A stretch of 32,000 bases of DNA. Source: Pseudomonas aeruginosa (lineage in GTDB: Bacteria; Pseudomonadota; Gammaproteobacteria; Pseudomonadales; Pseudomonadaceae). Below the pieces are notes generated by a model. The model did no database searches. It saw only the letters and a list, made by a program, of their open reading frames with translations, and was not told the DNA's origin. The position numbers and the translations under genes were made by a program. The stretch lies in NCBI RefSeq assembly GCF_001457615.1, contig NZ_LN831024.1:3390001-3422000 (forward strand). The letters are read 5' to 3'. This document shows, one piece after another, positions 3,679-25,625 of this stretch. The number at the start of each line of letters is the position of its first letter. Within the stretch, counting starts at the first letter, position 1.

Positions 3679-5883
3679 TCAGCCGAGCAACTTGTCGACG
3701 GTCAGCGGGAAGTCGCGCAGGCGGCGGCCGGTGGCGTGGTACACGGCATTCGCCACTGCGGCGGCGACGCCGACGATGCCTATTTCGCCGACGCCCTTGG
3801 AGCCCAGTTCGTTAACGATATCGTCGGGTTCGTCAACGAAGATCACCTCGATATCGCCAATATCGGCGTTAACCGGGATGTGGTACTCGGCGAGGTTGTG
3901 GTTCATGCAGCGGCCCAGCGCATGGTCGACCTGGGTTTCCTCCTGCAAGGCCATGCCCAGGCCCCAGACCACCCCGCCGAGTATCTGGCTGCGAGCGGTC
4001 TTCGGGTTGATCACCCGCCCCGCCGCGACCGCGCTGACCACCCGGCTCACACGCAGGGTACCGAGGGCTTCGTCGATCCGCACCTCGACGAATACCGCCG
4101 AATGGGTCGCGGTGGCGTAGCCTTTGCGCCGCGCCGAGGGTTCAGCTTCCACCTCCACCTGCAACGCGTCTTCCGGCAGCCCTTGCAGCAGGTCGGCCAG
4201 GGCGTATCGCGTATCGCCCGCTTCCAGATGGCCACGGCATATGCGGAAGCGTTCTTCGGCGGTGCCGGCCAGCTCCGGATGGCGGGCCCTGGCATGGGCG
4301 ACCAGGGCCTGGCGCAGGCGCAGGCAGGCCAGGCGGACGGCGGAACCGACCGACGAGACGGTGAACGAGCCGCCCTGCAATGGAGCCTTGGGCAACGCAC
4401 TGTCGCCAAGCTGGAAGCGCACCTCTTCCGGCGCCATGCCAGCGGCGTCGGCGGCGATCTGGGTCATCACCGTGTAGGTGCCGGTGCCGATATCCGTGGT
4501 CGCGCTGGCCACCCGCAGCAGGCCGTCCGCCTCCAGCCGCGCCCTCGCGCTGGCCTTGCTCTGCATGGCCTCCCAGACGCCACCGGCCATGCCCCAGCCG
4601 AGCAACTGGCGCCCTTCGCTCATGCTCCGTGGCCGTGGGTCGCGGGCCTGCCAACCGAAGCGCCGGGCGCCCTCCTCGTAGCAGGCCAGCAGCGCCTTGC
4701 TGGAGTACGGCTTGTCCTCGTTGCCGTTGCGCTCGGCGAAGTTGAACCGGCGCAGCGCGATGGGGTCCATGCCGAGCCGCACCGCCAGTTCGTCCATCGC
4801 GCATTCCAGCCCGATCAGTCCCAGCGCCGCGCCGGGGGCGCGCATGTCCAGCGGGGTATAGACGTCCAGCGGCACCAGACGGTAGGCCAGGGAAAGGTTC
4901 TCGCAGCGATAGAGCATGCCGCTCCACTCCACCACGTGCTCGGTGAAGTCTTCGAAGCGCGAGGTCTGCGCTGTCGCCTGGTGGCCCAGCGCAAGCAGGC
5001 GCCCCTCGGCATCGGCGCCCAGTTGCAGGCGCTGCAGGGTGCGCGGCCGGTAGCCGAAGGTGAACATCTGCTGGCGGGTCAGCACTACGCGCACCGACCG
5101 CCGCAGTTGCAGCGCCGCCATCACCGCCAGGGCCAACTGGTATTGCGGACGCAGGCCGGAGCCGAAGGCGCCGCCGACGTAGGCGGCACAGACCCTTACC
5201 TTGTCGGCGGGCAGGCGGAAGACCTTTTGCAGGTAGGCCTGGCTGTTCTGCGTCCCCTGGGTCTTGTCGTGCACCAGCAGGCTGCCGTCGGGCTGGACGA
5301 TGACCGTGGACGCGTGCGGTTCCATGGGATTGTGGTGCTCGATCGGCGTGCTGTAGCTGGCCTCGACCCGAATCGGCGCGGCGCGGTAGGCGGTGTAGAA
5401 ATCGCCGCGCTCGGCGGGCAGTTGGGCGGGAGCCTCATGGGCCTGGTCGAGGGCGGCCAGCAGGTCGGTCTGGTGCGGCTCGGGCTCGATATCGATGCGC
5501 AGCAGCGAGCCCGCGTAGCGGGCCAGTTCCAGGCTCCGTGCCAGGACCAGGGCAAGGGGCTGGCCGCTGTACAGGACGCGGTCGTCGAACAGCGGGCGGA
5601 AGGGTTCGCCTTCGGCGGCATCAGCGTCCTTGTAGGGCTCGTCGTCGCCCGCCATCGGCGGCCGGTTCAGGTGATGCAGTACCGCGGCCACCCCGGGTAC
5701 CGCCAGGGCCGCCGCACAGTCGATGCCGCGCACCCGGCCGCGGGCGACGTCGCTGCTGACCACGCTGCCGTGGAGCAGGTCGGCGGCAGGATATTCGGCG
5801 GCGTAGCGAGCCTGGCCGGTGACCTTGGCTGGCCCGTCGACGCGATCCAGGGCTTGCCCGGTGCTGTGTGGCAGGCTGCTCAT
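3679..5883 (-). CDS. Xanthine dehydrogenase/aldehyde oxidase family molybdopterin-binding large subunit (PaoC/YagR-like)
   Basis: 734 aa. The N-terminal LDRVDGPAKVTGQARYAAEY motif and the length are typical of Moco subunits. The start overlaps the upstream stop (ATGA, 5880-5883). Confidence 0.93.
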   Translation of the reverse strand: MSSLPHSTGQALDRVDGPAKVTGQARYAAEYPAADLLHGSVVSSDVARGRVRGIDCAAALAVPGVAAVLHHLNRPPMAGDDEPYKDADAAEGEPFRPLFDDRVLYSGQPLALVLARSLELARYAGSLLRIDIEPEPHQTDLLAALDQAHEAPAQLPAERGDFYTAYRAAPIRVEASYSTPIEHHNPMEPHASTVIVQPDGSLLVHDKTQGTQNSQAYLQKVFRLPADKVRVCAAYVGGAFGSGLRPQYQLALAVMAALQLRRSVRVVLTRQQMFTFGYRPRTLQRLQLGADAEGRLLALGHQATAQTSRFEDFTEHVVEWSGMLYRCENLSLAYRLVPLDVYTPLDMRAPGAALGLIGLECAMDELAVRLGMDPIALRRFNFAERNGNEDKPYSSKALLACYEEGARRFGWQARDPRPRSMSEGRQLLGWGMAGGVWEAMQSKASARARLEADGLLRVASATTDIGTGTYTVMTQIAADAAGMAPEEVRFQLGDSALPKAPLQGGSFTVSSVGSAVRLACLRLRQALVAHARARHPELAGTAEERFRICRGHLEAGDTRYALADLLQGLPEDALQVEVEAEPSARRKGYATATHSAVFVEVRIDEALGTLRVSRVVSAVAAGRVINPKTARSQILGGVVWGLGMALQEETQVDHALGRCMNHNLAEYHIPVNADIGDIEVIFVDEPDDIVNELGSKGVGEIGIVGVAAAVANAVYHATGRRLRDFPLTVDKLLG

Positions 5884-6869
5884 TGGCCGATCCCTCCCGA
5901 GTGGGCTTCTTCCAGTGCGCGAACGATGGCGTTGCGCGCCAATCCGATCTTGAAGGCGTTGTGGGCCAGCGGCCTGGCGTCACGCAGCAGCGCTTCGGCG
6001 AAGCGGACATAGCTGTCCCGGTTCGCCGGGTGGCCCCTGAAACGTTCCTCCAGCTCTGCGACGCGCCATGGCTTGTGGGCCACGCCGCCGAGCGCCAGGC
6101 GCAGTTCGCCAATGCGCTCGCCGTCCGGTTCCAGGGCCGCCGCCACCGAGACCAGGGCGAAGGCGTAGGAGGCCCGGTCGCGCACCTTCAGGTAGTGGCA
6201 ATGCCGGGCGAAGCGCGGTGCTGGCAGCTCGATGGCGGTGACCAGTTCGTCGACGGCCAGGCAGTTGTCGCGCTCGGGCGTGTCTGCCGGCAGGCGATGG
6301 AAGTCGGCGAAAGCGACCCGCCGCTCGCCAGCGCGGCCGCGCACCAGTACCTGAGCCTCCAGCGCCGCCAGCGCCACGCACAGGTCGGATGGATGTACCG
6401 CCACGCAGTGTTCGCTGGCGCCGAGGATCGCATGGTTGCGGTTCAGCCCGCTGCGCGCGGGGCATCCGCTGCCCGGCTCGCGCTTGTTGCATGGCGTGCC
6501 GGTGTCGTAGAAATACTGGCAGCGGGTACGCTGCAACAGGTTGCCGCCGGTGCTGGCCATGTTGCGCAACTGCGGCGAGGCGCCGGCGAGGATCGCCTGG
6601 GCTAGCAAGGGATAGTCCGCCTCCACGGCGGGATTCCAGGCCAGTTCGGCGTTGCTGACCAGGGCTCCGACCAGCAGGCCGCCGGTGGGCGTCCGGCGGA
6701 TGTCGCGCAGCGGGAGGCCGGTGATGTCGATGAGTCGCCGGGGCCTGGCAACGTTTTCCTTCATCAGGTCGAGCAGGTTGGTGCCACCGGCGATGTAGCG
6801 CGACTCCGGGCCGGCGAGGCCCAGCGCCTGCTCGATGTCGGCCGGCTTGGCATAGGCGAAGGGCGTCAT
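5880..6869 (-). CDS. FAD-binding subunit of the molybdenum hydroxylase (PaoB/CoxM-like)
   Basis: Track ORF 5880..7064 trimmed to ATG 6869 (MTPFAYAKPADIEQAL...). YIAGGTNLLDLMK is an FAD-binding motif. There are ATGA overlaps with both neighbours. The 65-codon N-terminal extension in the track is Arg/Pro-rich and overlaps the upstream gene. Confidence 0.88.
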   Translation of the reverse strand: MTPFAYAKPADIEQALGLAGPESRYIAGGTNLLDLMKENVARPRRLIDITGLPLRDIRRTPTGGLLVGALVSNAELAWNPAVEADYPLLAQAILAGASPQLRNMASTGGNLLQRTRCQYFYDTGTPCNKREPGSGCPARSGLNRNHAILGASEHCVAVHPSDLCVALAALEAQVLVRGRAGERRVAFADFHRLPADTPERDNCLAVDELVTAIELPAPRFARHCHYLKVRDRASYAFALVSVAAALEPDGERIGELRLALGGVAHKPWRVAELEERFRGHPANRDSYVRFAEALLRDARPLAHNAFKIGLARNAIVRALEEAHSGGIGQ

Positions 6870-18700: not shown

Positions 18701-19617
18701 GGCATGCCGAGGAAGGCCGCCGCGGTACGCGGCGCCACCCCGCTGGCGGCGGCCAGCCAGTCGGCCTCGTTGCCGTCGCGGTAGCCGAGGGTCTGCAATA
18801 CCGGCACGTCCAGCGCGAGGAACTCGGCACGGCGCGCCGGGCCGTTCTGCAGGTGCTGCAGGTTGACCAGCGCCTGGACATCGGCGCCAGCGAAGGACTT
18901 CCTCAACGCTTCCGGATCGCTGTCGTCGAACCACACCGCCAGCGGCGCCTGGCCGTGCCGCTCGCTACGCCGCAACAGTTCGTCGATGGCGCCGGTCTGG
19001 GCGTCGGCGATGGCGCCGCGCGGGATCAGGAAGGCGATGCGCGGGGCGTCGCTGGCCCAGCGCGAGGCGCCCCAGGCCAGGTAGTCGGCGAGGCCGGCGA
19101 ACGGCGCCGGTGCGTCGGGATGATAGAAGCCGGCCTGCGCCAGGGGCTGCGGCGCCGGCAACGCGTCGACGGGCAGGCCGGCATGCCAGCGTCGGACCGC
19201 CTCGAACAGCCGGCGCAGGTTGGCTTCGCCGCCGTTCGCGTAGTAGCCGACCAGGCGCCCGCCCAGCGCCGCCGGCAGGTTGCCGAAACCCGGCGGACCG
19301 CCGCCGACGCGGATCCAGGGTTGCGTCCCGCCTTGCAAGCGCTCGCCCAGCGCCTGCTCGACCTGGGCGCGATCGGTCGGCCGCGGCGTGTCGAGGATCA
19401 GCAGGTCGCCGCCGTCCAGCCACTCGCCGGGCGGCGCCTCGCCGATGCCGAGGCGCAGGCCGCGCAACTCGACACCGGCCTCGCGCGCCCAACCGGCTAG
19501 GCGCTGGTGCTTGCCCGGGAGGACGAAATCGCTGCTGAGCAGACGCACCTGGGCCGGCTCCGCCCAGGCACAGAGACTGGCCAGCAGCGCGCCGCAGAAG
19601 AGTAGCGAACGGCGCAT
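15772..19617 (-). CDS. CobN/Mg-chelatase-family large protein with an N-terminal signal peptide
   Basis: The 1692-aa track ORF is trimmed to ATG 19617, giving 1281 aa. MRRSLLFCGALLASLCAWA|EP is a signal peptide. Similarity to the CobN/ChlH family extends across the protein (judged from recalled family features). The upstream part of the track ORF overlaps the receptor gene in another frame and is Arg/Pro-rich. Confidence 0.88.
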   Translation of the reverse strand: MRRSLLFCGALLASLCAWAEPAQVRLLSSDFVLPGKHQRLAGWAREAGVELRGLRLGIGEAPPGEWLDGGDLLILDTPRPTDRAQVEQALGERLQGGTQPWIRVGGGPPGFGNLPAALGGRLVGYYANGGEANLRRLFEAVRRWHAGLPVDALPAPQPLAQAGFYHPDAPAPFAGLADYLAWGASRWASDAPRIAFLIPRGAIADAQTGAIDELLRRSERHGQAPLAVWFDDSDPEALRKSFAGADVQALVNLQHLQNGPARRAEFLALDVPVLQTLGYRDGNEADWLAAASGVAPRTAAAFLGMPETWGMSDPLVISALENGEPKLMAGQAEALLDKLDRLLRLRRLPAADKHLALMFWNHPEGEKNVAASHLNVPASLARLGEALRAAGYRVATSDESALIDTAQRLLGGYYRPQTLDALYRDGLAASLPLDAYLHWFEALPADLREEMRARWGDPRRHWALRDIDGQRRFVFPAARLGNLLLLPQPPRAGRPGEAYHDSAVPPDHLYLAVYQFVREGFGADALIHFGTHGTQEWLPGKDRGLAVGDYPLRTLGDLPVFYPYIQDNVGEAIQARRRGRAVTVSHQTPSFAPAGLYDELRDLHQLIHEYQQLDEGAVRERSAEQIRAAVRAAHMNDDLGWSEVAMREDFPAFLGVLHDHLHRLAGSAMPLGLHTFGVAASPELRLGTVMQQLGEPYYRALGLDPDELFAADFRALREGRAYRTLQRYLRDGGEIAKVADPRLREQLLRARELDRQLADTGELEALLAGLAGRFVAPGPGGDPIRNPQVPSGRNLFAFEADKVPTRAAYEAGAEAFGQLLESYRAEHQGRAPEKLAFSLWSSETMRHLGIVESQALHALGLRPRWDAGGRLLALDIVPAAELGRPRVDVVLQVTSVYRDQFDGFMRLLAEAIERLAALDEPGNPLARNSQALERRLRERGVEAPLAQRLSRLRLFGNAPGDYGTGVTQLTLDSTRWDDDSALAEQFLGRLQYAYGSRDWGVKLDGGNLFAEQLKGVQAAILSRSSTLNGVLSTDHPFEYLGGLSLAVRHLDGASPALYIADLRQRQPRTTAAAQFLASELRGRYLSPQWIAAMQREGYAGSLEMLDLANNLWGWQAADRTMVRADQWQALHDTFVMDRRELGLAEWFETHNPTAQAQIIARMAEAIRKGYWDASEQTRRELAERWRQLAAAGAGEVGAATTREFIERMAGGFGEAAAQAEGAAASGAGETVSGRVLEEVAPPPSGEPQPWLRLAAAVLLALFAAGAVRQSVVNRRPMENRS

Positions 19618-22614: not shown

Positions 22615-22628
22615 TTGACGCAGATCAA
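22615..22628. promoter_or_regulatory. Anr/Dnr (FNR-type) box upstream of nrdD
   Basis: TTGACGCAGATCAA matches TTGAT-N4-ATCAA at 9 of 10 specified positions. Its centre is about 92 nt upstream of the nrdD ATG, so a class II promoter would start transcription near NrdR box 1. Confidence 0.55.
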
Positions 22629-22655: not shown

Positions 22656-22671
22656 CCACAACATCTTGTTG
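22656..22671. promoter_or_regulatory. NrdR box 1
   Basis: CCACAACATCTTGTTG. Its reverse complement shares ATGTTGTGG with box 2. It is a partial palindrome (ACAAC...GTTGT). The centre-to-centre distance to box 2 is 31 bp, as expected for tandem NrdR boxes. Confidence 0.5.
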
Positions 22672-22686
22672 TTTTGAAAAATCAAA

Positions 22687-22702
22687 ACACATCATGTTGT
22701 GG
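22687..22702. promoter_or_regulatory. NrdR box 2
   Basis: ACACATCATGTTGTGG matches the recalled NrdR consensus acaCwAtATaTwGtgt at 12 of 16 positions. It lies immediately upstream of the nrdD SD and ATG. Confidence 0.6.
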
Positions 22703-22712
22703 AGAAGTTGAA

Positions 22713-24740
22713 ATGACCCAGCCCCGGAAGGCTACCTGGCCGGCCACCCTGCTCAAGCGCAACGGACGTGAAGTCCCTTTCGATCCCGGCAAGATCGAAC
22801 GCGCCATCGCCGCCGCCGGCCAGGCCACCGGCGAGTTCGACCCGCAGCAGGCGCAGGCGCTCGCCGAACGCGTGGTGGAACGCCTGCCGGAGCGCGCCTG
22901 CCTGGATATCGAACGGGTCCAGGACCTGGTCGAACGGGTGCTGATGGAGGCCGGCCACTACCCCACGGCGCGCGCCTACGTGGTCTACCGCGAACGCCAC
23001 GGCCGGCTGCGCCGCGAGCGCAAGACCCTGGTGGACGTCGCCGCGTCGATGAACGAATACCTGTCCCGCGAGGATTGGCGGGTGCGCGCCAACGCCAACC
23101 AGGGCTATTCCCTCGGCGGGCTGATCCTCAACGTATCCGGCAAGGTCACCGCGAACTACTGGCTGGATGAGGTCTACGATGCCGACATCGCCGCCGCCCA
23201 CCGCGACGCCGACCTGCATATCCACGACCTCGACATGCTCGCCGGCTATTGCGCCGGCTGGTCGCTGCGCACCTTGCTGAACGAAGGCCTGAACGGCGTG
23301 CCGGGGCGGGTCGAGGCCGGTCCGCCGAAGCACCTGGGCAGCGCCCTGGGGCAGATGGTCAACTTCCTCGGCACCCTGCAGAACGAGTGGGCCGGGGCCC
23401 AGGCCTTCAGCTCCTTCGATACCTACCTGGCGCCCTACGTGCGCAAGGACCGCCTCGACTACGCCAACGTACGCCAGGCCCTCCAGGAGTTCATCTACAA
23501 CCTCAACGTGCCGTCGCGCTGGGGCACCCAGACGCCCTTCACCAACCTGACCTTCGACTGGGTCTGCCCGGACGACCTGCGCGACCAGGTGCCGCGCATC
23601 GGCGGCGAGGAGATGCCCTTCGCCTACGGCGAGCTGCAGGCCGAGATGGACCTGATCAACCGCGCCTACATCGAGGTGATGCAGGCCGGCGATGCCCACG
23701 GCCGGGTATTCACCTTCCCGATCCCGACCTACAACATCACCCACGACTTCCCCTGGGACAGCGACAACGCCACGCGCCTGTTCGAGATGACCGCGCGCTA
23801 CGGCCTGCCCTACTTCCAGAACTTCCTCAACTCGGACATGCAGCCCAACCAGGTGCGCTCGATGTGCTGCCGCCTGCAACTGGACGTGCGCGAACTGCTC
23901 AAGCGTGGCAACGGCCTGTTCGGCTCGGCGGAGCAGACCGGCTCGCTGGGCGTGGTGACGATCAACTGCGCGCGCCTGGGCTATCGCCACCGTGGCGACG
24001 CCGCCGGCCTCTACCGCCAGCTCGACCACCTGCTCGAACTCGCCTTCGCCAGCCTGGAGCTGAAGCGCAAGGTGATCCAGCAGCACATGGATGCCGGCCT
24101 CTATCCCTACACCCGACGCTACCTGGGTACCCTGCGCAACCATTTCTCCACCATCGGCGTGAACGGCCTGCACGAGATGGTGCGCAACTTCAGCGACGAC
24201 CGCGAGGGACTGCACAGCGAAGCCGGGCGCGAGATGGCCCTGGCCCTGCTCGATCACGTGCGCGCGCGGCTGGTGGGTTTCCAGGAGGACAGCGGGCACC
24301 TCTACAACCTGGAAGCCACGCCCGCCGAGGGCACCACCTATCGCTTCGCCCGCGAGGACCGCAAGCGCTATCCGCGCATCCTCCAGGCCGGCACGCCGGA
24401 GGCGCCCTACTACACCAACTCCTCGCAACTGCCGGTGGGCTTCACCGACGACCCGTTCGAGGCACTGGAGCTGCAGGACGCCCTGCAATGCAAGTACACC
24501 GGCGGCACCGTGCTGCATCTCTACATGGCCGAGCGGATTTCCTCCGCCGAAGCCTGCAAGACCCTGGTGCGCACCGCCCTCGGTCGCTTCCGCCTGCCGT
24601 ACCTGACCGTCACCCCCACCTTCTCGATCTGCCCGCGGCACGGCTACCTGGCCGGCGAGCACGAGTTCTGCCCGAAGTGCGACGAGGAGCTGCTGCAACG
24701 CTCCACGCCCAAGAGCTGTTGCGGCGGCTGCGGCGGTTGA
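22713..24740 (+). CDS. nrdD: Class III (anaerobic) ribonucleoside-triphosphate reductase large polypeptide, lacking the C-terminal glycyl-radical motif
   Basis: Track ORF (TTG 22674) trimmed to ATG 22713 after GGAGAAG, giving 675 aa. It has an N-terminal ATP-cone (LLKRNGREVPFDPGKIERAI) and a Zn-ribbon region (FSICPRHGYLAGEHEFCPKCDEE). The protein ends ...KSCCGGCGG with no RxxGY...NxGK tail. Confidence 0.93.
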   Translation: MTQPRKATWPATLLKRNGREVPFDPGKIERAIAAAGQATGEFDPQQAQALAERVVERLPERACLDIERVQDLVERVLMEAGHYPTARAYVVYRERHGRLRRERKTLVDVAASMNEYLSREDWRVRANANQGYSLGGLILNVSGKVTANYWLDEVYDADIAAAHRDADLHIHDLDMLAGYCAGWSLRTLLNEGLNGVPGRVEAGPPKHLGSALGQMVNFLGTLQNEWAGAQAFSSFDTYLAPYVRKDRLDYANVRQALQEFIYNLNVPSRWGTQTPFTNLTFDWVCPDDLRDQVPRIGGEEMPFAYGELQAEMDLINRAYIEVMQAGDAHGRVFTFPIPTYNITHDFPWDSDNATRLFEMTARYGLPYFQNFLNSDMQPNQVRSMCCRLQLDVRELLKRGNGLFGSAEQTGSLGVVTINCARLGYRHRGDAAGLYRQLDHLLELAFASLELKRKVIQQHMDAGLYPYTRRYLGTLRNHFSTIGVNGLHEMVRNFSDDREGLHSEAGREMALALLDHVRARLVGFQEDSGHLYNLEATPAEGTTYRFAREDRKRYPRILQAGTPEAPYYTNSSQLPVGFTDDPFEALELQDALQCKYTGGTVLHLYMAERISSAEACKTLVRTALGRFRLPYLTVTPTFSICPRHGYLAGEHEFCPKCDEELLQRSTPKSCCGGCGG

Positions 24741-24783
24741 GTCGCCTGTCGTTCCTTTCATCCACCAGCAAGGAGTACCACCG

Positions 24784-24930
24784 ATGAACCCCAACCAGTT
24801 GCCCGAAGGCCAGCGCCAGCGCTGCGAAGTCTGGACCCGCGTGATGGGCTACCACCGTCCCGTGGCAGCGTTCAATGCCGGCAAGCAGTCCGAGCATCGC
24901 GAACGCCGCCATTTCCGCGAGACGCGATGA
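24784..24930 (+). CDS. 48-aa ORF encoding the class III RNR glycyl-radical segment (MNPNQLPEGQRQRCEVWTRVMGYHRPVAAFNAGKQSEHRERRHFRETR)
   Basis: It is too short for the ORF track; I translated it by hand. AAGGAG (24770-24775) lies 8 nt before ATG 24784. The stop TGA (24928-24930) overlaps the nrdG ATG (24927) as ATGA. TRVMGY-x-RPV-x3-N-x-GK-x2-E matches the conserved NrdD C-terminal glycyl-radical signature. Its frame is +1 relative to nrdD. Confidence 0.6.
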   Translation: MNPNQLPEGQRQRCEVWTRVMGYHRPVAAFNAGKQSEHRERRHFRETR

Positions 24931-25625
24931 GCGCCACGCTCAGGGTCGGGGGCCTGGTGCCCCTGACCACCCTCGACTACCCCGGCCTGCTCGCCTGCGT
25001 GCTGTTCTGCCAGGGCTGCGCCTGGCGCTGCCGCTACTGCCACAACCCGGAACTGATCGCGCCGCGCGGCGCGGAGGAAATCCCCTGGCCACGCCTGCTC
25101 GAATTCCTCCGCCGACGCCAGGGCCTGTTGCAGGCGGTGGTCTTCAGCGGCGGCGAGGCGACCCTGCAGGCGGCCCTCGGCGACGCCATGCGCACGGTCC
25201 GCGAACTGGGCTTCCGCGTCGGCCTGCACAGCGCCGGCATCAACCCCCGCGCCTTCGCCCGGGTGCTGGGGCAGAGCGACTGGGTGGGCTTCGACGTCAA
25301 GGCGCCGGCCGAGGACGTTGCCGCCATTACCGGCGTGGACGGCAGCGGCGCGGCCAACTGGCGCAGCCTGGAATACCTGCTGGACAGCGGCGTAGCCTAC
25401 GAATGCCGGACCACGGTGCACTGGGGCTTGTTCGATAGCGAACGCCTCTGGCGCCTGGCGACGCGCCTGCGCGGGATGGGGGTGGAGCGCTTCGCCGTAC
25501 AACTGGCGCGCCCGGCCCGCCAGCTCGATCCGCAGCTTCTCGCGAAGCCCGCGCCGCAGGGCGCTGCGCAGCTATGGCGAGAACTGGAAGAGCTGTTTCC
25601 CGCCTTCGAACTGCGCGACGCCTGA
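24927..25625 (+). CDS. nrdG: Anaerobic ribonucleotide reductase activating enzyme (radical SAM)
   Basis: 232 aa. The CxxxCxxC cluster is CAWRCRYCHNPE. SGGEATLQ is present. It sits immediately downstream of nrdD. Confidence 0.93.
   Translation: MSATLRVGGLVPLTTLDYPGLLACVLFCQGCAWRCRYCHNPELIAPRGAEEIPWPRLLEFLRRRQGLLQAVVFSGGEATLQAALGDAMRTVRELGFRVGLHSAGINPRAFARVLGQSDWVGFDVKAPAEDVAAITGVDGSGAANWRSLEYLLDSGVAYECRTTVHWGLFDSERLWRLATRLRGMGVERFAVQLARPARQLDPQLLAKPAPQGAAQLWRELEELFPAFELRDA

Follow-up and report, generated by a model that had tools for sequence, protein, structure and literature searches.

A class III ribonucleotide reductase locus of Pseudomonas aeruginosa with the predicted glycyl-radical loop on a separate small gene

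Layout of the nrdD-nrdG locus and profile matches of its products

We analysed a stretch of 32,000 nucleotides of Pseudomonas aeruginosa DNA (RefSeq assembly GCF_001457615.1, contig NZ_LN831024.1, positions 3,390,001 to 3,422,000 of the forward strand), called the window below, for the genes of its class III ribonucleotide reductase (RNR). Three genes lie there in the order nrdD, a small open reading frame (ORF) and nrdG, all on the + strand. The nrdD gene (22713-24740, with its ATG at 22713 and its stop codon at 24738-24740) encodes a large subunit of 675 amino acids (aa) that comprises an ATP-cone, a catalytic barrel with the finger-loop cysteines SMCCR, and a zinc ribbon, CPRH-x9-CPKC, which forms a putative metal site at residues 640-656. 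In translation, the chain stops directly after this ribbon with the C-terminus ...CPKCDEELLQRSTPKSCCGGCGG; a short helix and a Cys/Gly-rich tail, SCCGGCGG, are all that comes behind the ribbon. An intergenic spacer of 43 nt (24741-24783, + strand) carries the Shine-Dalgarno site of the small ORF, AAGGAG at 24770-24775, 8 nt 5' of its ATG. The small ORF (24784-24930, + strand) translates to 48 aa, MNPNQLPEGQRQRCEVWTRVMGYHRPVAAFNAGKQSEHRERRHFRETR, laid out as an RQRC leader, a hairpin CEVWTR-VMG22Y-HRP with Gly22 (codon 24847-24849) at its tip, and a helix NAGKQSEHRER, and corresponds to the glycyl-radical loop of NrdD. Its TGA (24928-24930) overlaps the ATG of nrdG at 24927 in the string ATGA, and nrdG (24927-25625, + strand) encodes a radical-SAM (S-adenosylmethionine) activase of 232 aa of the NrdG2 type. 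An earlier, sequence-only reading of the window, made by a model from the letters and a list of ORFs, had pointed out the 43-nt spacer, the AAGGAG with its 8-nt spacing and the ATGA overlap, and we found all three as described.

The reading frame of the small ORF is +1 to that of nrdD and, as had also been noted, is open back to 24607, past the nrdD stop codon, with a GC-rich repeat at the junction of the two genes. The GC content of the small ORF at codon positions 1, 2 and 3 is 0.69, 0.47 and 0.83, the same pattern as in nrdD and nrdG; the flanking genes have 0.90-0.92 at the third position. A search of the junction region revealed no terminator-like site, no sigma-70 promoter-like site and no meaningful Rfam family. 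The tryptic peptides predicted for the 5.5-kDa small protein are CEVWTR and VMGYHRPVAAFNAGK.

Profile searches assigned adjoining parts of one family to the two ORFs. Against Pfam NRDD (PF13597), the 675-aa NrdD matched profile positions 2-531 of 562 (E 9.8e-171), with the ATP-cone matched as well, and the 48-aa ORF matched the end of this profile, positions 529-562, with E 7.5e-9 and 35.2 bits (gathering cut-off 26.2). The same division was seen with NCBIfam NF006126, in which NrdD covered positions 4-658 of 684 (1124 bits, cut-off 548) and the 48-aa ORF positions 649-682, and with TIGR02487 (581 positions), in which NrdD covered 2-549 (445.7 bits, cut-off 326) and the 48-aa ORF 548-580. The nrdG product matched TIGR02495, NrdG2, with 236 bits (cut-off 131) as well as Radical_SAM, and its CxxxCxxC motif reads CAWRCRYC. 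Judged by these alignments, the 48-aa ORF fills exactly the profile end that is missing from NrdD, far beyond what chance would give for 48 residues. The proposals that the 675-aa protein ends past its zinc ribbon without a glycyl loop, and that the small ORF is the NrdD tail with the radical glycine at residue 22, are thus borne out by the profile boundaries.

The 675-aa NrdD contains no glycyl-radical motif and gave no alternative match to the Gly-loop part of the NrdD profiles, although such a motif elsewhere in the protein had been named as a possible objection. The string ARLGY in the barrel was considered as a hidden glycyl motif and rejected, because it is conserved in fused enzymes too and lies outside the Gly-loop part of the profile. 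All conserved positions of the radical loop, CEVWTRVMGYHRPV..FN.GK..E, are kept in the small proteins; G22 does not vary among 121 of them, and Cys14 is likewise invariant. Neither the 48-aa ORF nor its 121 relatives matched the Pfam family Gly_radical of the pyruvate formate-lyase (PFL) type, their only match being NRDD, which answers the profile check that the sequence-only reading had proposed. Searches of the small ORF against PDB sequences, and against phage genomes by tblastn, returned no match. A split intein or trans-splicing was rejected, since neither ORF matches an intein family and no HN-Cys junction is present; the tail past the zinc ribbon (about 19 aa) and the leader of the small protein (about 13 aa) are, we presume from the usual sizes, too short for intein halves.

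An identical 675-aa protein heads a cluster of 1277 members named ribonucleoside triphosphate reductase of P. aeruginosa, in agreement with the statement in the sequence-only reading that the reference NrdD is also 675 aa long. By its profile matches the locus is placed in the class III RNR family and is NrdDh/NrdD2-like; the family TIGR02487 / PF13597 includes the NrdDh (NrdD2-type) subclass of Thermotoga maritima and Neisseria bacilliformis. One trait common to all characterised members of the class was not found, in that the radical glycine is not on the barrel chain, and the same holds in 82 loci.

Split loci, fused relatives and their origins

A genome scan that used five aligned large subunits as the query covered a single genome of each species. 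Relatives were encoded in at least 595 stretches, of which the best 80 loci, each with 71% identity or more, were kept and combined with plasmid loci and the window. In this set 82 loci are split, representing about 80 species plus plasmids; among the others, L058 is fused, L087 from an Acidiphilium plasmid is a fused comparison, and two end at a contig edge. Three further split loci were missed by the large-subunit motif in the detailed tally and appear as split in the locus comparison.

The small ORF starts with ATG in 82/82 split loci and has a Shine-Dalgarno site in 80/82 (AAGGAG in 47), mostly 5-8 nt and overall 5-12 nt upstream. Its frame relative to nrdD is +1 in 36 loci, +2 in 29 and 0 in 17, and its ATG lies between -32 and +234 nt from the nrdD stop codon (median 31). 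In 27 of the 82 loci a stop codon stands in the small-ORF frame between the two genes, and no slippery sequence is conserved among the split loci. Overlaps between the nrdG start and the small-ORF stop measure 4 nt in 24 loci and 8 nt in 5. Of the features that the sequence-only reading had proposed to survey, the ATG and the Shine-Dalgarno site were nearly universal and the 4-nt overlap was confined to a part of the loci. Because frames and spacers vary, stops intervene and each small ORF has its own ATG and Shine-Dalgarno site, a conserved frameshift or readthrough cannot yield this pattern; in the 27 loci with an in-frame stop between the genes, moreover, a shift upstream of the nrdD stop cannot fuse them. 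A separately initiated small gene, translationally coupled to nrdG, accounts for the whole pattern.

The small ORF is under strong purifying selection. Over a gap-free core of 36 codons in 27 Pseudomonas/Stutzerimonas loci, the median pairwise ratio of nonsynonymous to synonymous substitution rates (dN/dS) is 0.043, with mean proportions of nonsynonymous and synonymous differences (pN and pS) of 0.045 and 0.54, and the predominantly synonymous variation that the sequence-only reading had suggested looking for was thereby found. The dN/dS of the adjacent 90 nrdD codons is 0.080.

When 5.8 billion protein clusters were searched with the 48-aa sequence, 3432 clusters (90% identity) contained homologues, and every one of the best 120 of these is a protein that stands alone and is 48-80 aa long. 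At least 1000 contigs carry the identical 48-aa sequence, for which NCBI uses the names "anaerobic ribonucleoside-triphosphate reductase" or "oxidoreductase". Plasmid records of Azospira, Sulfuricystis, Paracoccus, Cupriavidus necator and Sulfuricurvum show a large coding sequence (CDS) of 581-712 aa, a small CDS of 57-66 aa and an activase, and RefSeq often labels the small CDS "nrdD"; in C. necator the split locus is on a pHG1-like megaplasmid. Split taxa belong to the Alpha-, Beta- and Gammaproteobacteria and the Campylobacterota, often with the locus plasmid-borne, and the arrangement also occurs in genomes or metagenome-assembled genomes (MAGs) labelled Acidobacteria, Verrucomicrobiota, Geobacteraceae, Chloroflexi and Coriobacteriia. 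The order nrdD, small ORF, nrdG is kept under strong purifying selection in hundreds of species.

Unsplit relatives are close to the split ones. Among the 120 clusters nearest to the fused Acidiphilium enzyme, 117 are fused, and the fused sequences of the alignment set are 70-76% identical to P. aeruginosa NrdD. Their linker, counted from the second CxxC of the zinc ribbon to the Cys of CEVW, is 3-17 residues long (for example CPQC-AAA-CEIW). Compared with these fused forms, the split forms have extra tail and leader sequence. Past the zinc ribbon, 75/75 split large subunits carry an Asp-led CxxC-D-E-E-L-L-A-R-K..., whereas fused enzymes mostly read CxxC-A. The leader of the small protein, about 10-30 residues, ends in R-(Q/T)-x-C, which was found in 82/82 split loci and 120/120 small proteins as against 2/117 fused sequences. 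Three fused members, L058, P0443 and P0453, combine split-type motifs with long linkers and seem to have been re-fused secondarily.

A neighbour-joining tree of 215 large-subunit cores showed split and fused forms interleaved, with internal branches of 0.001-0.005 that make the topology unreliable. The Fitch minimum of 11 split/fused changes on this tree was discarded, because such short internal branches render it untrustworthy, and the question of origin was therefore judged on the signature motifs. The derived motifs shared by the split forms argue that within this clade the split arose once and then spread widely by horizontal transfer.

More distant relatives show that the split also occurs outside this clade. 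Among the best 150 representatives at 50% identity, 70 end at most 75 residues from the zinc-ribbon anchor without a Gly loop, the rest being 57 fused sequences and 23 fragments. Four of the 70 were checked at the locus level. In L091, nrdD is followed by a Gly-loop ORF of 60 aa. In L090 (2001-6240), whose NrdD is 48% identical and whose nrdD holds a LAGLIDADG intein, the order is nrdD, nrdG and a Gly-loop ORF of 46 aa, so that the two reductase pieces are not adjacent and the activase gene stands between them. In L092/L093 and L094, whose NrdD homologues of 655-725 aa end past the zinc ribbon, no Gly-loop ORF was found within 2 kb on either strand; the neighbouring genes at L092-L094 mostly gave no Pfam match. 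The distant split forms are without the R-(Q/T)-x-C leader and, for this reason, may be independent splits.

Several individual members of the family deserve mention. The Cys/Gly-rich tail SCCGGCGG of the P. aeruginosa NrdD is encoded at 24714-24737; tails containing CC also occur on the large subunits of L007, L008, L009, L040, L066, L071, L076 and L080 and on protein P0317, whose tail of about 32 residues consists mainly of Cys and Gly (QQCCGACGGCCGVCGGCGVCDVCCGCCGG...), and such a tail is missing in most other surveyed Pseudomonas loci and in most other taxa. The tail is reminiscent of the redox-shuttle cysteines at the C-termini of class I and II RNRs. On the megaplasmid of Cupriavidus metallidurans CH34 (L001, 1141-2889), nrdD opens only at a GTG and encodes 582 aa without an ATP-cone, compared with 676 aa in the C. 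necator homologue L086; for CH34 an N-terminal truncation is one possibility and a natural lack of the cone another. A Geobacteraceae MAG (L063) holds two Gly-loop copies, at 5242-5421 and 6583-6798. The complete small ORF stands behind nrdD and the second copy, without a leader, overlaps the start of nrdG; between the two lies a 312-aa ORF with a PEP-CTERM-like end, and it looks like an insertion duplicated part of the small gene. The first roughly 415 residues of P0272 (713 aa) are near-identical to P. aeruginosa NrdD, with one difference by eye, and the remainder is a fused-type sequence with its own Gly loop. P0272 is known from one member and one contig only, which makes a chimeric assembly or a recombinant allele the probable explanation, and it was not accepted as a true fused Pseudomonas NrdD; P0328 (742 aa) was likewise rejected as a true fusion, being an out-of-frame read-through. 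The NrdD of P0136 (L089, 2501-4897) has a C-terminal glutaredoxin/NrdH-like domain (CPNC) with the Gly loop just before it. P0139, P0153, P0157, P0177 and P0184 have a glutaredoxin/NrdH-like C-terminus too, and a loose motif match suggests a Gly loop in front of it; these redoxin-tailed NrdDs would be reductases fused to a likely redoxin partner. Finally, many of the closest representatives at 50% identity (P0121-P0270) have lengths of 800-1900 aa and align in 2-5 separate pieces, which suggests that this NrdD subfamily often carries inteins.

Function, predicted structure and rival explanations

The sequence-only reading took the class III enzyme to be functional in P. aeruginosa, and the literature agrees. 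An nrdD mutant grows poorly under anaerobic conditions unless vitamin B12 is supplied, and plasmids or transposons that carry the whole nrdDG region, small ORF included, restore the tested phenotypes (PMC4860495, PMC5645315). The NrdD protein has been detected under anoxia (PMC12284477). Strain PAO1 shows weak class III activity, which was traced to a promoter point mutation in the Dnr box; its Anr/Dnr box is reported as CTGACGCAGATCAA, and the C in it is linked to weak induction of nrdD (PMC5645315). In the window, the Anr/Dnr box of the nrdD promoter is found as the exact string TTGACGCAGATCAA (22615-22628, + strand) with T at position 1, the "efficient" T allele, as in PA14 and clinical isolates, so that the window probably does not come from PAO1. 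Just 5' of the nrdD start lie two imperfect palindromes of 16 bp, CACAACATCTTGTTGT (22657-22672, + strand) and ACACATCATGTTGTGG (22687-22702, + strand), 30 nt apart, and a weak Rfam hairpin match spans them at 22657-22702. We take these palindromes to resemble tandem NrdR repressor boxes. Elsewhere in the window, ARAGORN called a 90-nt tRNA-Ser with anticodon ACT at 19185-19274 (- strand). Rfam finds no tRNA at the gathering threshold there, and the call, which sits inside long ORFs, is probably a false positive.

The structure of the complex was predicted with AlphaFold2 from the concatenated large and small proteins, with an alignment of 104 fused homologues, 18 large subunits and 20 small proteins. 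The model had a mean predicted local distance difference test score (pLDDT) of 79.5 and a predicted template modelling score (pTM) of 0.74. The junction was disordered (pLDDT 58-65), residues 15-26 of the small protein formed a beta hairpin with Gly22 at its tip (pLDDT 75-86), and a helix followed (83-88). The small protein alone, predicted with 120 homologues, gave no confident fold (mean pLDDT 56.5, range 53-59, pTM 0.16). The concatenated model superposed on the NrdDs of T. maritima, P. copri, S. thermophilus and phage T4 with template modelling (TM) scores of 0.72-0.76 normalised to the target (structure matches 4coi, 4u3e, 8p23 and 1h79); since the alignment consists mostly of fused sequences, the model largely reproduces the fused fold and is an argument from homology, not an independent proof of docking.

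In solved NrdDs, the zinc-ribbon domain lies between the last barrel strand and the C-terminal loop, and the glycine at the loop tip is buried beside the finger-loop cysteine (PMC4493059). The break between nrdD and the small ORF falls exactly between zinc ribbon and radical loop. A buried glycine must leave the barrel for activation, the activase of PFL accepts short peptides that mimic the loop, and in glycyl-radical proteins, PFL and E. coli NrdD among them, oxygen cuts the chain at the radical glycine. In the fused NrdD of P. copri, the glycyl-radical domain is highly mobile and can exit the barrel (PMC11226230).

Taken together, these data suggest that the locus encodes a two-subunit class III RNR whose radical glycine is on a separately translated small subunit that is activated by NrdG and inserts into the NrdD barrel, a reading to which we assign a probability of roughly 0.88. 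By itself the small protein would not fold stably. The hairpin that bears Gly22 at its tip would enter the NrdD barrel facing the SMCCR finger loop, as in fused enzymes, and NrdG with S-adenosylmethionine would abstract the C-alpha hydrogen of Gly22, perhaps while the peptide is free or swung out. The glycyl radical would then generate a thiyl radical that drives nucleotide reduction, and the holoenzyme would be (large)2(small)2. More speculatively, exposure to oxygen might cost only the 5.5-kDa peptide and spare the 76-kDa catalytic subunit, the split might spare the activase from having to draw a tethered domain out of the barrel to gain access to the glycine, and such a cheap loss of peptide might suit facultative aerobes and denitrifiers.

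The sequence-only reading had offered three accounts of the locus: a genuine two-piece enzyme, a +1 frameshift and a pseudogenising indel. The second of these, widened to stop readthrough or bypassing, would join nrdD and the small ORF into an ordinary fused NrdD. It draws on the open frame across the nrdD stop and the GC-rich junction in the window, on the 17 loci in which the two ORFs share a frame, and on fused relatives about 70-75% identical that are presumably active. It is nevertheless highly improbable, given that frame offset and spacer are not conserved, that the small-ORF frame is closed by a stop in 27 loci, that ATG and Shine-Dalgarno site are kept almost throughout, and that L090 has nrdG between the two pieces. 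The third account, in which the split is a lesion and the class III enzyme is dead or decaying, would explain a large protein without the essential glycine and the low class III activity reported for PAO1. That activity, however, is explained by the Dnr-box promoter mutation and not by the coding region, the architecture is kept in hundreds of species at a dN/dS of about 0.04 for the small ORF and 0.08 for nrdD, the exact 48-aa ORF recurs on at least 1000 contigs, and NrdD is induced under anoxia. Since the nrdD mutant is impaired anaerobically, the locus is needed for full anaerobic growth without B12, and complementation with the nrdDG region restores the tested phenotypes, a dead enzyme is hardly credible at all. 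A further possibility is that the small protein is translated but does not carry the radical, acting as a regulator or decoy substrate of NrdG or as a chaperone of NrdD while the radical resides elsewhere or has another source. The placement of the radical on the peptide comes from sequence, and neither the R-(Q/T)-x-C leader nor the invariant Cys14 has an assigned role. Yet the large subunit offers no alternative Gly loop, the small protein keeps every conserved position of the loop, fused relatives bear the same sequence as their own C-terminus, and the activase gene is translationally coupled to the small ORF, so that we consider such a bystander very unlikely. The genuine two-piece enzyme, by comparison, is supported by the 82 split loci, by the ATG and Shine-Dalgarno site of the small gene and by its dN/dS.

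Some observations nonetheless weigh against a two-subunit enzyme or against particular steps of it. We found in the literature no proteomic, ribosome-profiling (Ribo-seq), electron paramagnetic resonance (EPR) or biochemical data on the 48-aa peptide, whether as made, bound to NrdD or bearing a radical. In most of the 17 same-frame loci the small-ORF frame opens right past the nrdD stop, and low-level readthrough of that stop could make some fused protein there. The re-fused members indicate that fusion is tolerated, fused relatives are present in some aerobic or facultative taxa (Acidiphilium, Actinotalea), the structural model inherits the fused fold as described above, and the idea of cheap replacement is an inference from ecology. 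If the enzyme is in two pieces, the split could still be selectively neutral, a linker break that spread horizontally and left a small subunit permanently bound, without a role in exchange, repair or regulation. The break falls exactly in the linker between zinc ribbon and Gly loop, which is short and variable (3-17 aa) in fused forms, fused and split forms interleave at more than 70% identity, re-fusions occur, and translational coupling would fix the stoichiometry; the presence of fused relatives in aerobic or facultative taxa fits as well. On the other hand, the split forms gained and kept the R-(Q/T)-x-C leader and the Asp-led tail, which suggests an evolved interface or function, and the split persists across a very large and mostly facultatively anaerobic set of lineages. 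Neither point is decisive, and we give the neutral split somewhat less than an even chance. The small protein could instead be a diffusible, exchangeable "radical cartridge", a detachable part in the manner of GrcA/YfiD as the sequence-only reading had suggested: NrdG would activate the free, largely unfolded peptide off the enzyme, the peptide would dock through the leader and tail contacts specific to split forms, and after cleavage at Gly22 by oxygen the fragments would leave and a fresh peptide would load. Bacteria that move between oxic and anoxic surroundings would in this way safeguard their 76-kDa catalytic subunit. A neutral split of a flexible linker explains the data equally well, and we advance the cartridge tentatively, as an unlikely but specific proposal.

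Known systems, earlier descriptions and significance

The P. aeruginosa locus shares most of its parts with the canonical NrdD/NrdG systems of E. coli, phage T4, T. maritima and P. copri, namely the ATP-cone, the 10-stranded barrel, a finger loop of the SCCR type (SMCCR here), the zinc ribbon, the radical loop RVxGY...FNxGK and an adjacent radical-SAM activase. The zinc motif of T. maritima NrdD, CxxxHx6CxxC, is of the same Cys/His type (PMC4493059). The difference is that all characterised NrdDs have the radical glycine on the barrel chain, whereas in P. aeruginosa a stop codon, a ribosome-binding site and a new start codon stand between ribbon and loop.

A parallel is GrcA/YfiD, a small stand-alone radical-loop protein that is activated by a radical-SAM enzyme and completes a deficient barrel (PMC13450708, PMC8683613), as the 48-aa protein would. 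GrcA, however, backs up a full-length PFL that has its own radical domain, whereas the P. aeruginosa large subunit has none, so that the small protein would be obligatory; nor is GrcA encoded at the position of the missing domain, as the small ORF is. We take GrcA to be 127 aa long and a member of the PFL-type Gly_radical family. The 48-aa ORF, which matches NRDD and not Gly_radical, does not belong to that family. A review from 2026 gives the formate lyases as the only class of glycyl-radical enzymes with known spare-part proteins.

Other RNRs also distribute their functions over several chains. In NrdJa/NrdJb, the class II enzyme of P. aeruginosa, a C-terminal functional module is likewise on a separate polypeptide encoded directly downstream, and both polypeptides are required (PMC4520616); that enzyme, however, depends on B12, and its detached part is a zinc finger with a reducing cysteine pair, not the radical site. 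Class I NrdA/NrdB also places, in concept, a stable radical on a subunit apart from the catalytic barrel. NrdB, however, is ferritin-like and unrelated, holds a tyrosyl radical or metal centre and works by long-range proton-coupled electron transfer, whereas the radical loop of the small protein would insert directly into the barrel. Among other glycyl-radical enzymes, benzylsuccinate synthase (beta and gamma subunits) and 4-hydroxyphenylacetate decarboxylase (gamma subunit) have small polypeptides beside the catalytic subunit. Such subunits serve to bind FeS clusters or to modulate structure, and they are not known to bear the radical glycine.

The small ORF is already annotated by PGAP and carried in GenBank records, one of which, ABR86778.1, contains the 48-aa sequence and comes, we believe, from strain PA7. 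In the full-text literature, by contrast, we found no description of a separate class III radical peptide, although some older papers may mention one. The small gene is known to databases and unrecognised in the literature that we found, hidden in plain sight. The nrdDG genes of A. eutrophus (Siedow 1999) reportedly encode a 76.2-kDa NrdD and a 30.9-kDa NrdG, sizes that would agree with a large subunit of 676 aa and with an nrdG start set too far upstream, across the small ORF. The genome paper of C. metallidurans CH34 lists NrdDG as Rmet_5137 and Rmet_5139 and skips the tag between them. Crona et al. (2015) regarded NrdJa/b as the one split RNR in a free-living organism, publications of the Torrents laboratory give class III as "encoded in nrdD and nrdG", and large RNR phylogenies place the class III radical domain at the C-terminus with no exception. 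The split nrdD genes of phages, which are fragmented or interrupted by introns or homing endonucleases, are a different phenomenon. A two-piece enzyme would therefore contradict current descriptions in the field, including recent reviews. RNR surveys that filter NrdD by length or by a C-terminal motif may mishandle a large share of this subfamily, in which 70 of the 150 representatives at 50% identity are without the loop.

If the two-subunit enzyme is real, the nrdDG operon of a major pathogen and of denitrifiers (Cupriavidus necator, Ralstonia, Paracoccus) has a third essential gene, which knock-out, complementation and expression work has overlooked, and reconstitution from NrdD and NrdG alone would be expected to fail. 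The long-standing question of how the activase gains access to a glycine buried in the barrel would become directly testable, as a loop peptide of 5.5 kDa can be added, labelled and mutated separately. If the small protein should moreover prove to be a cartridge, it would make this the first glycyl-radical enzyme with an obligatory, replaceable radical subunit, and a natural example of a radical domain whose activation is physically separate from its insertion. A two-piece enzyme would, finally, suggest in concrete terms how facultative anaerobes might keep the damage that oxygen does to a glycyl-radical enzyme inexpensive.

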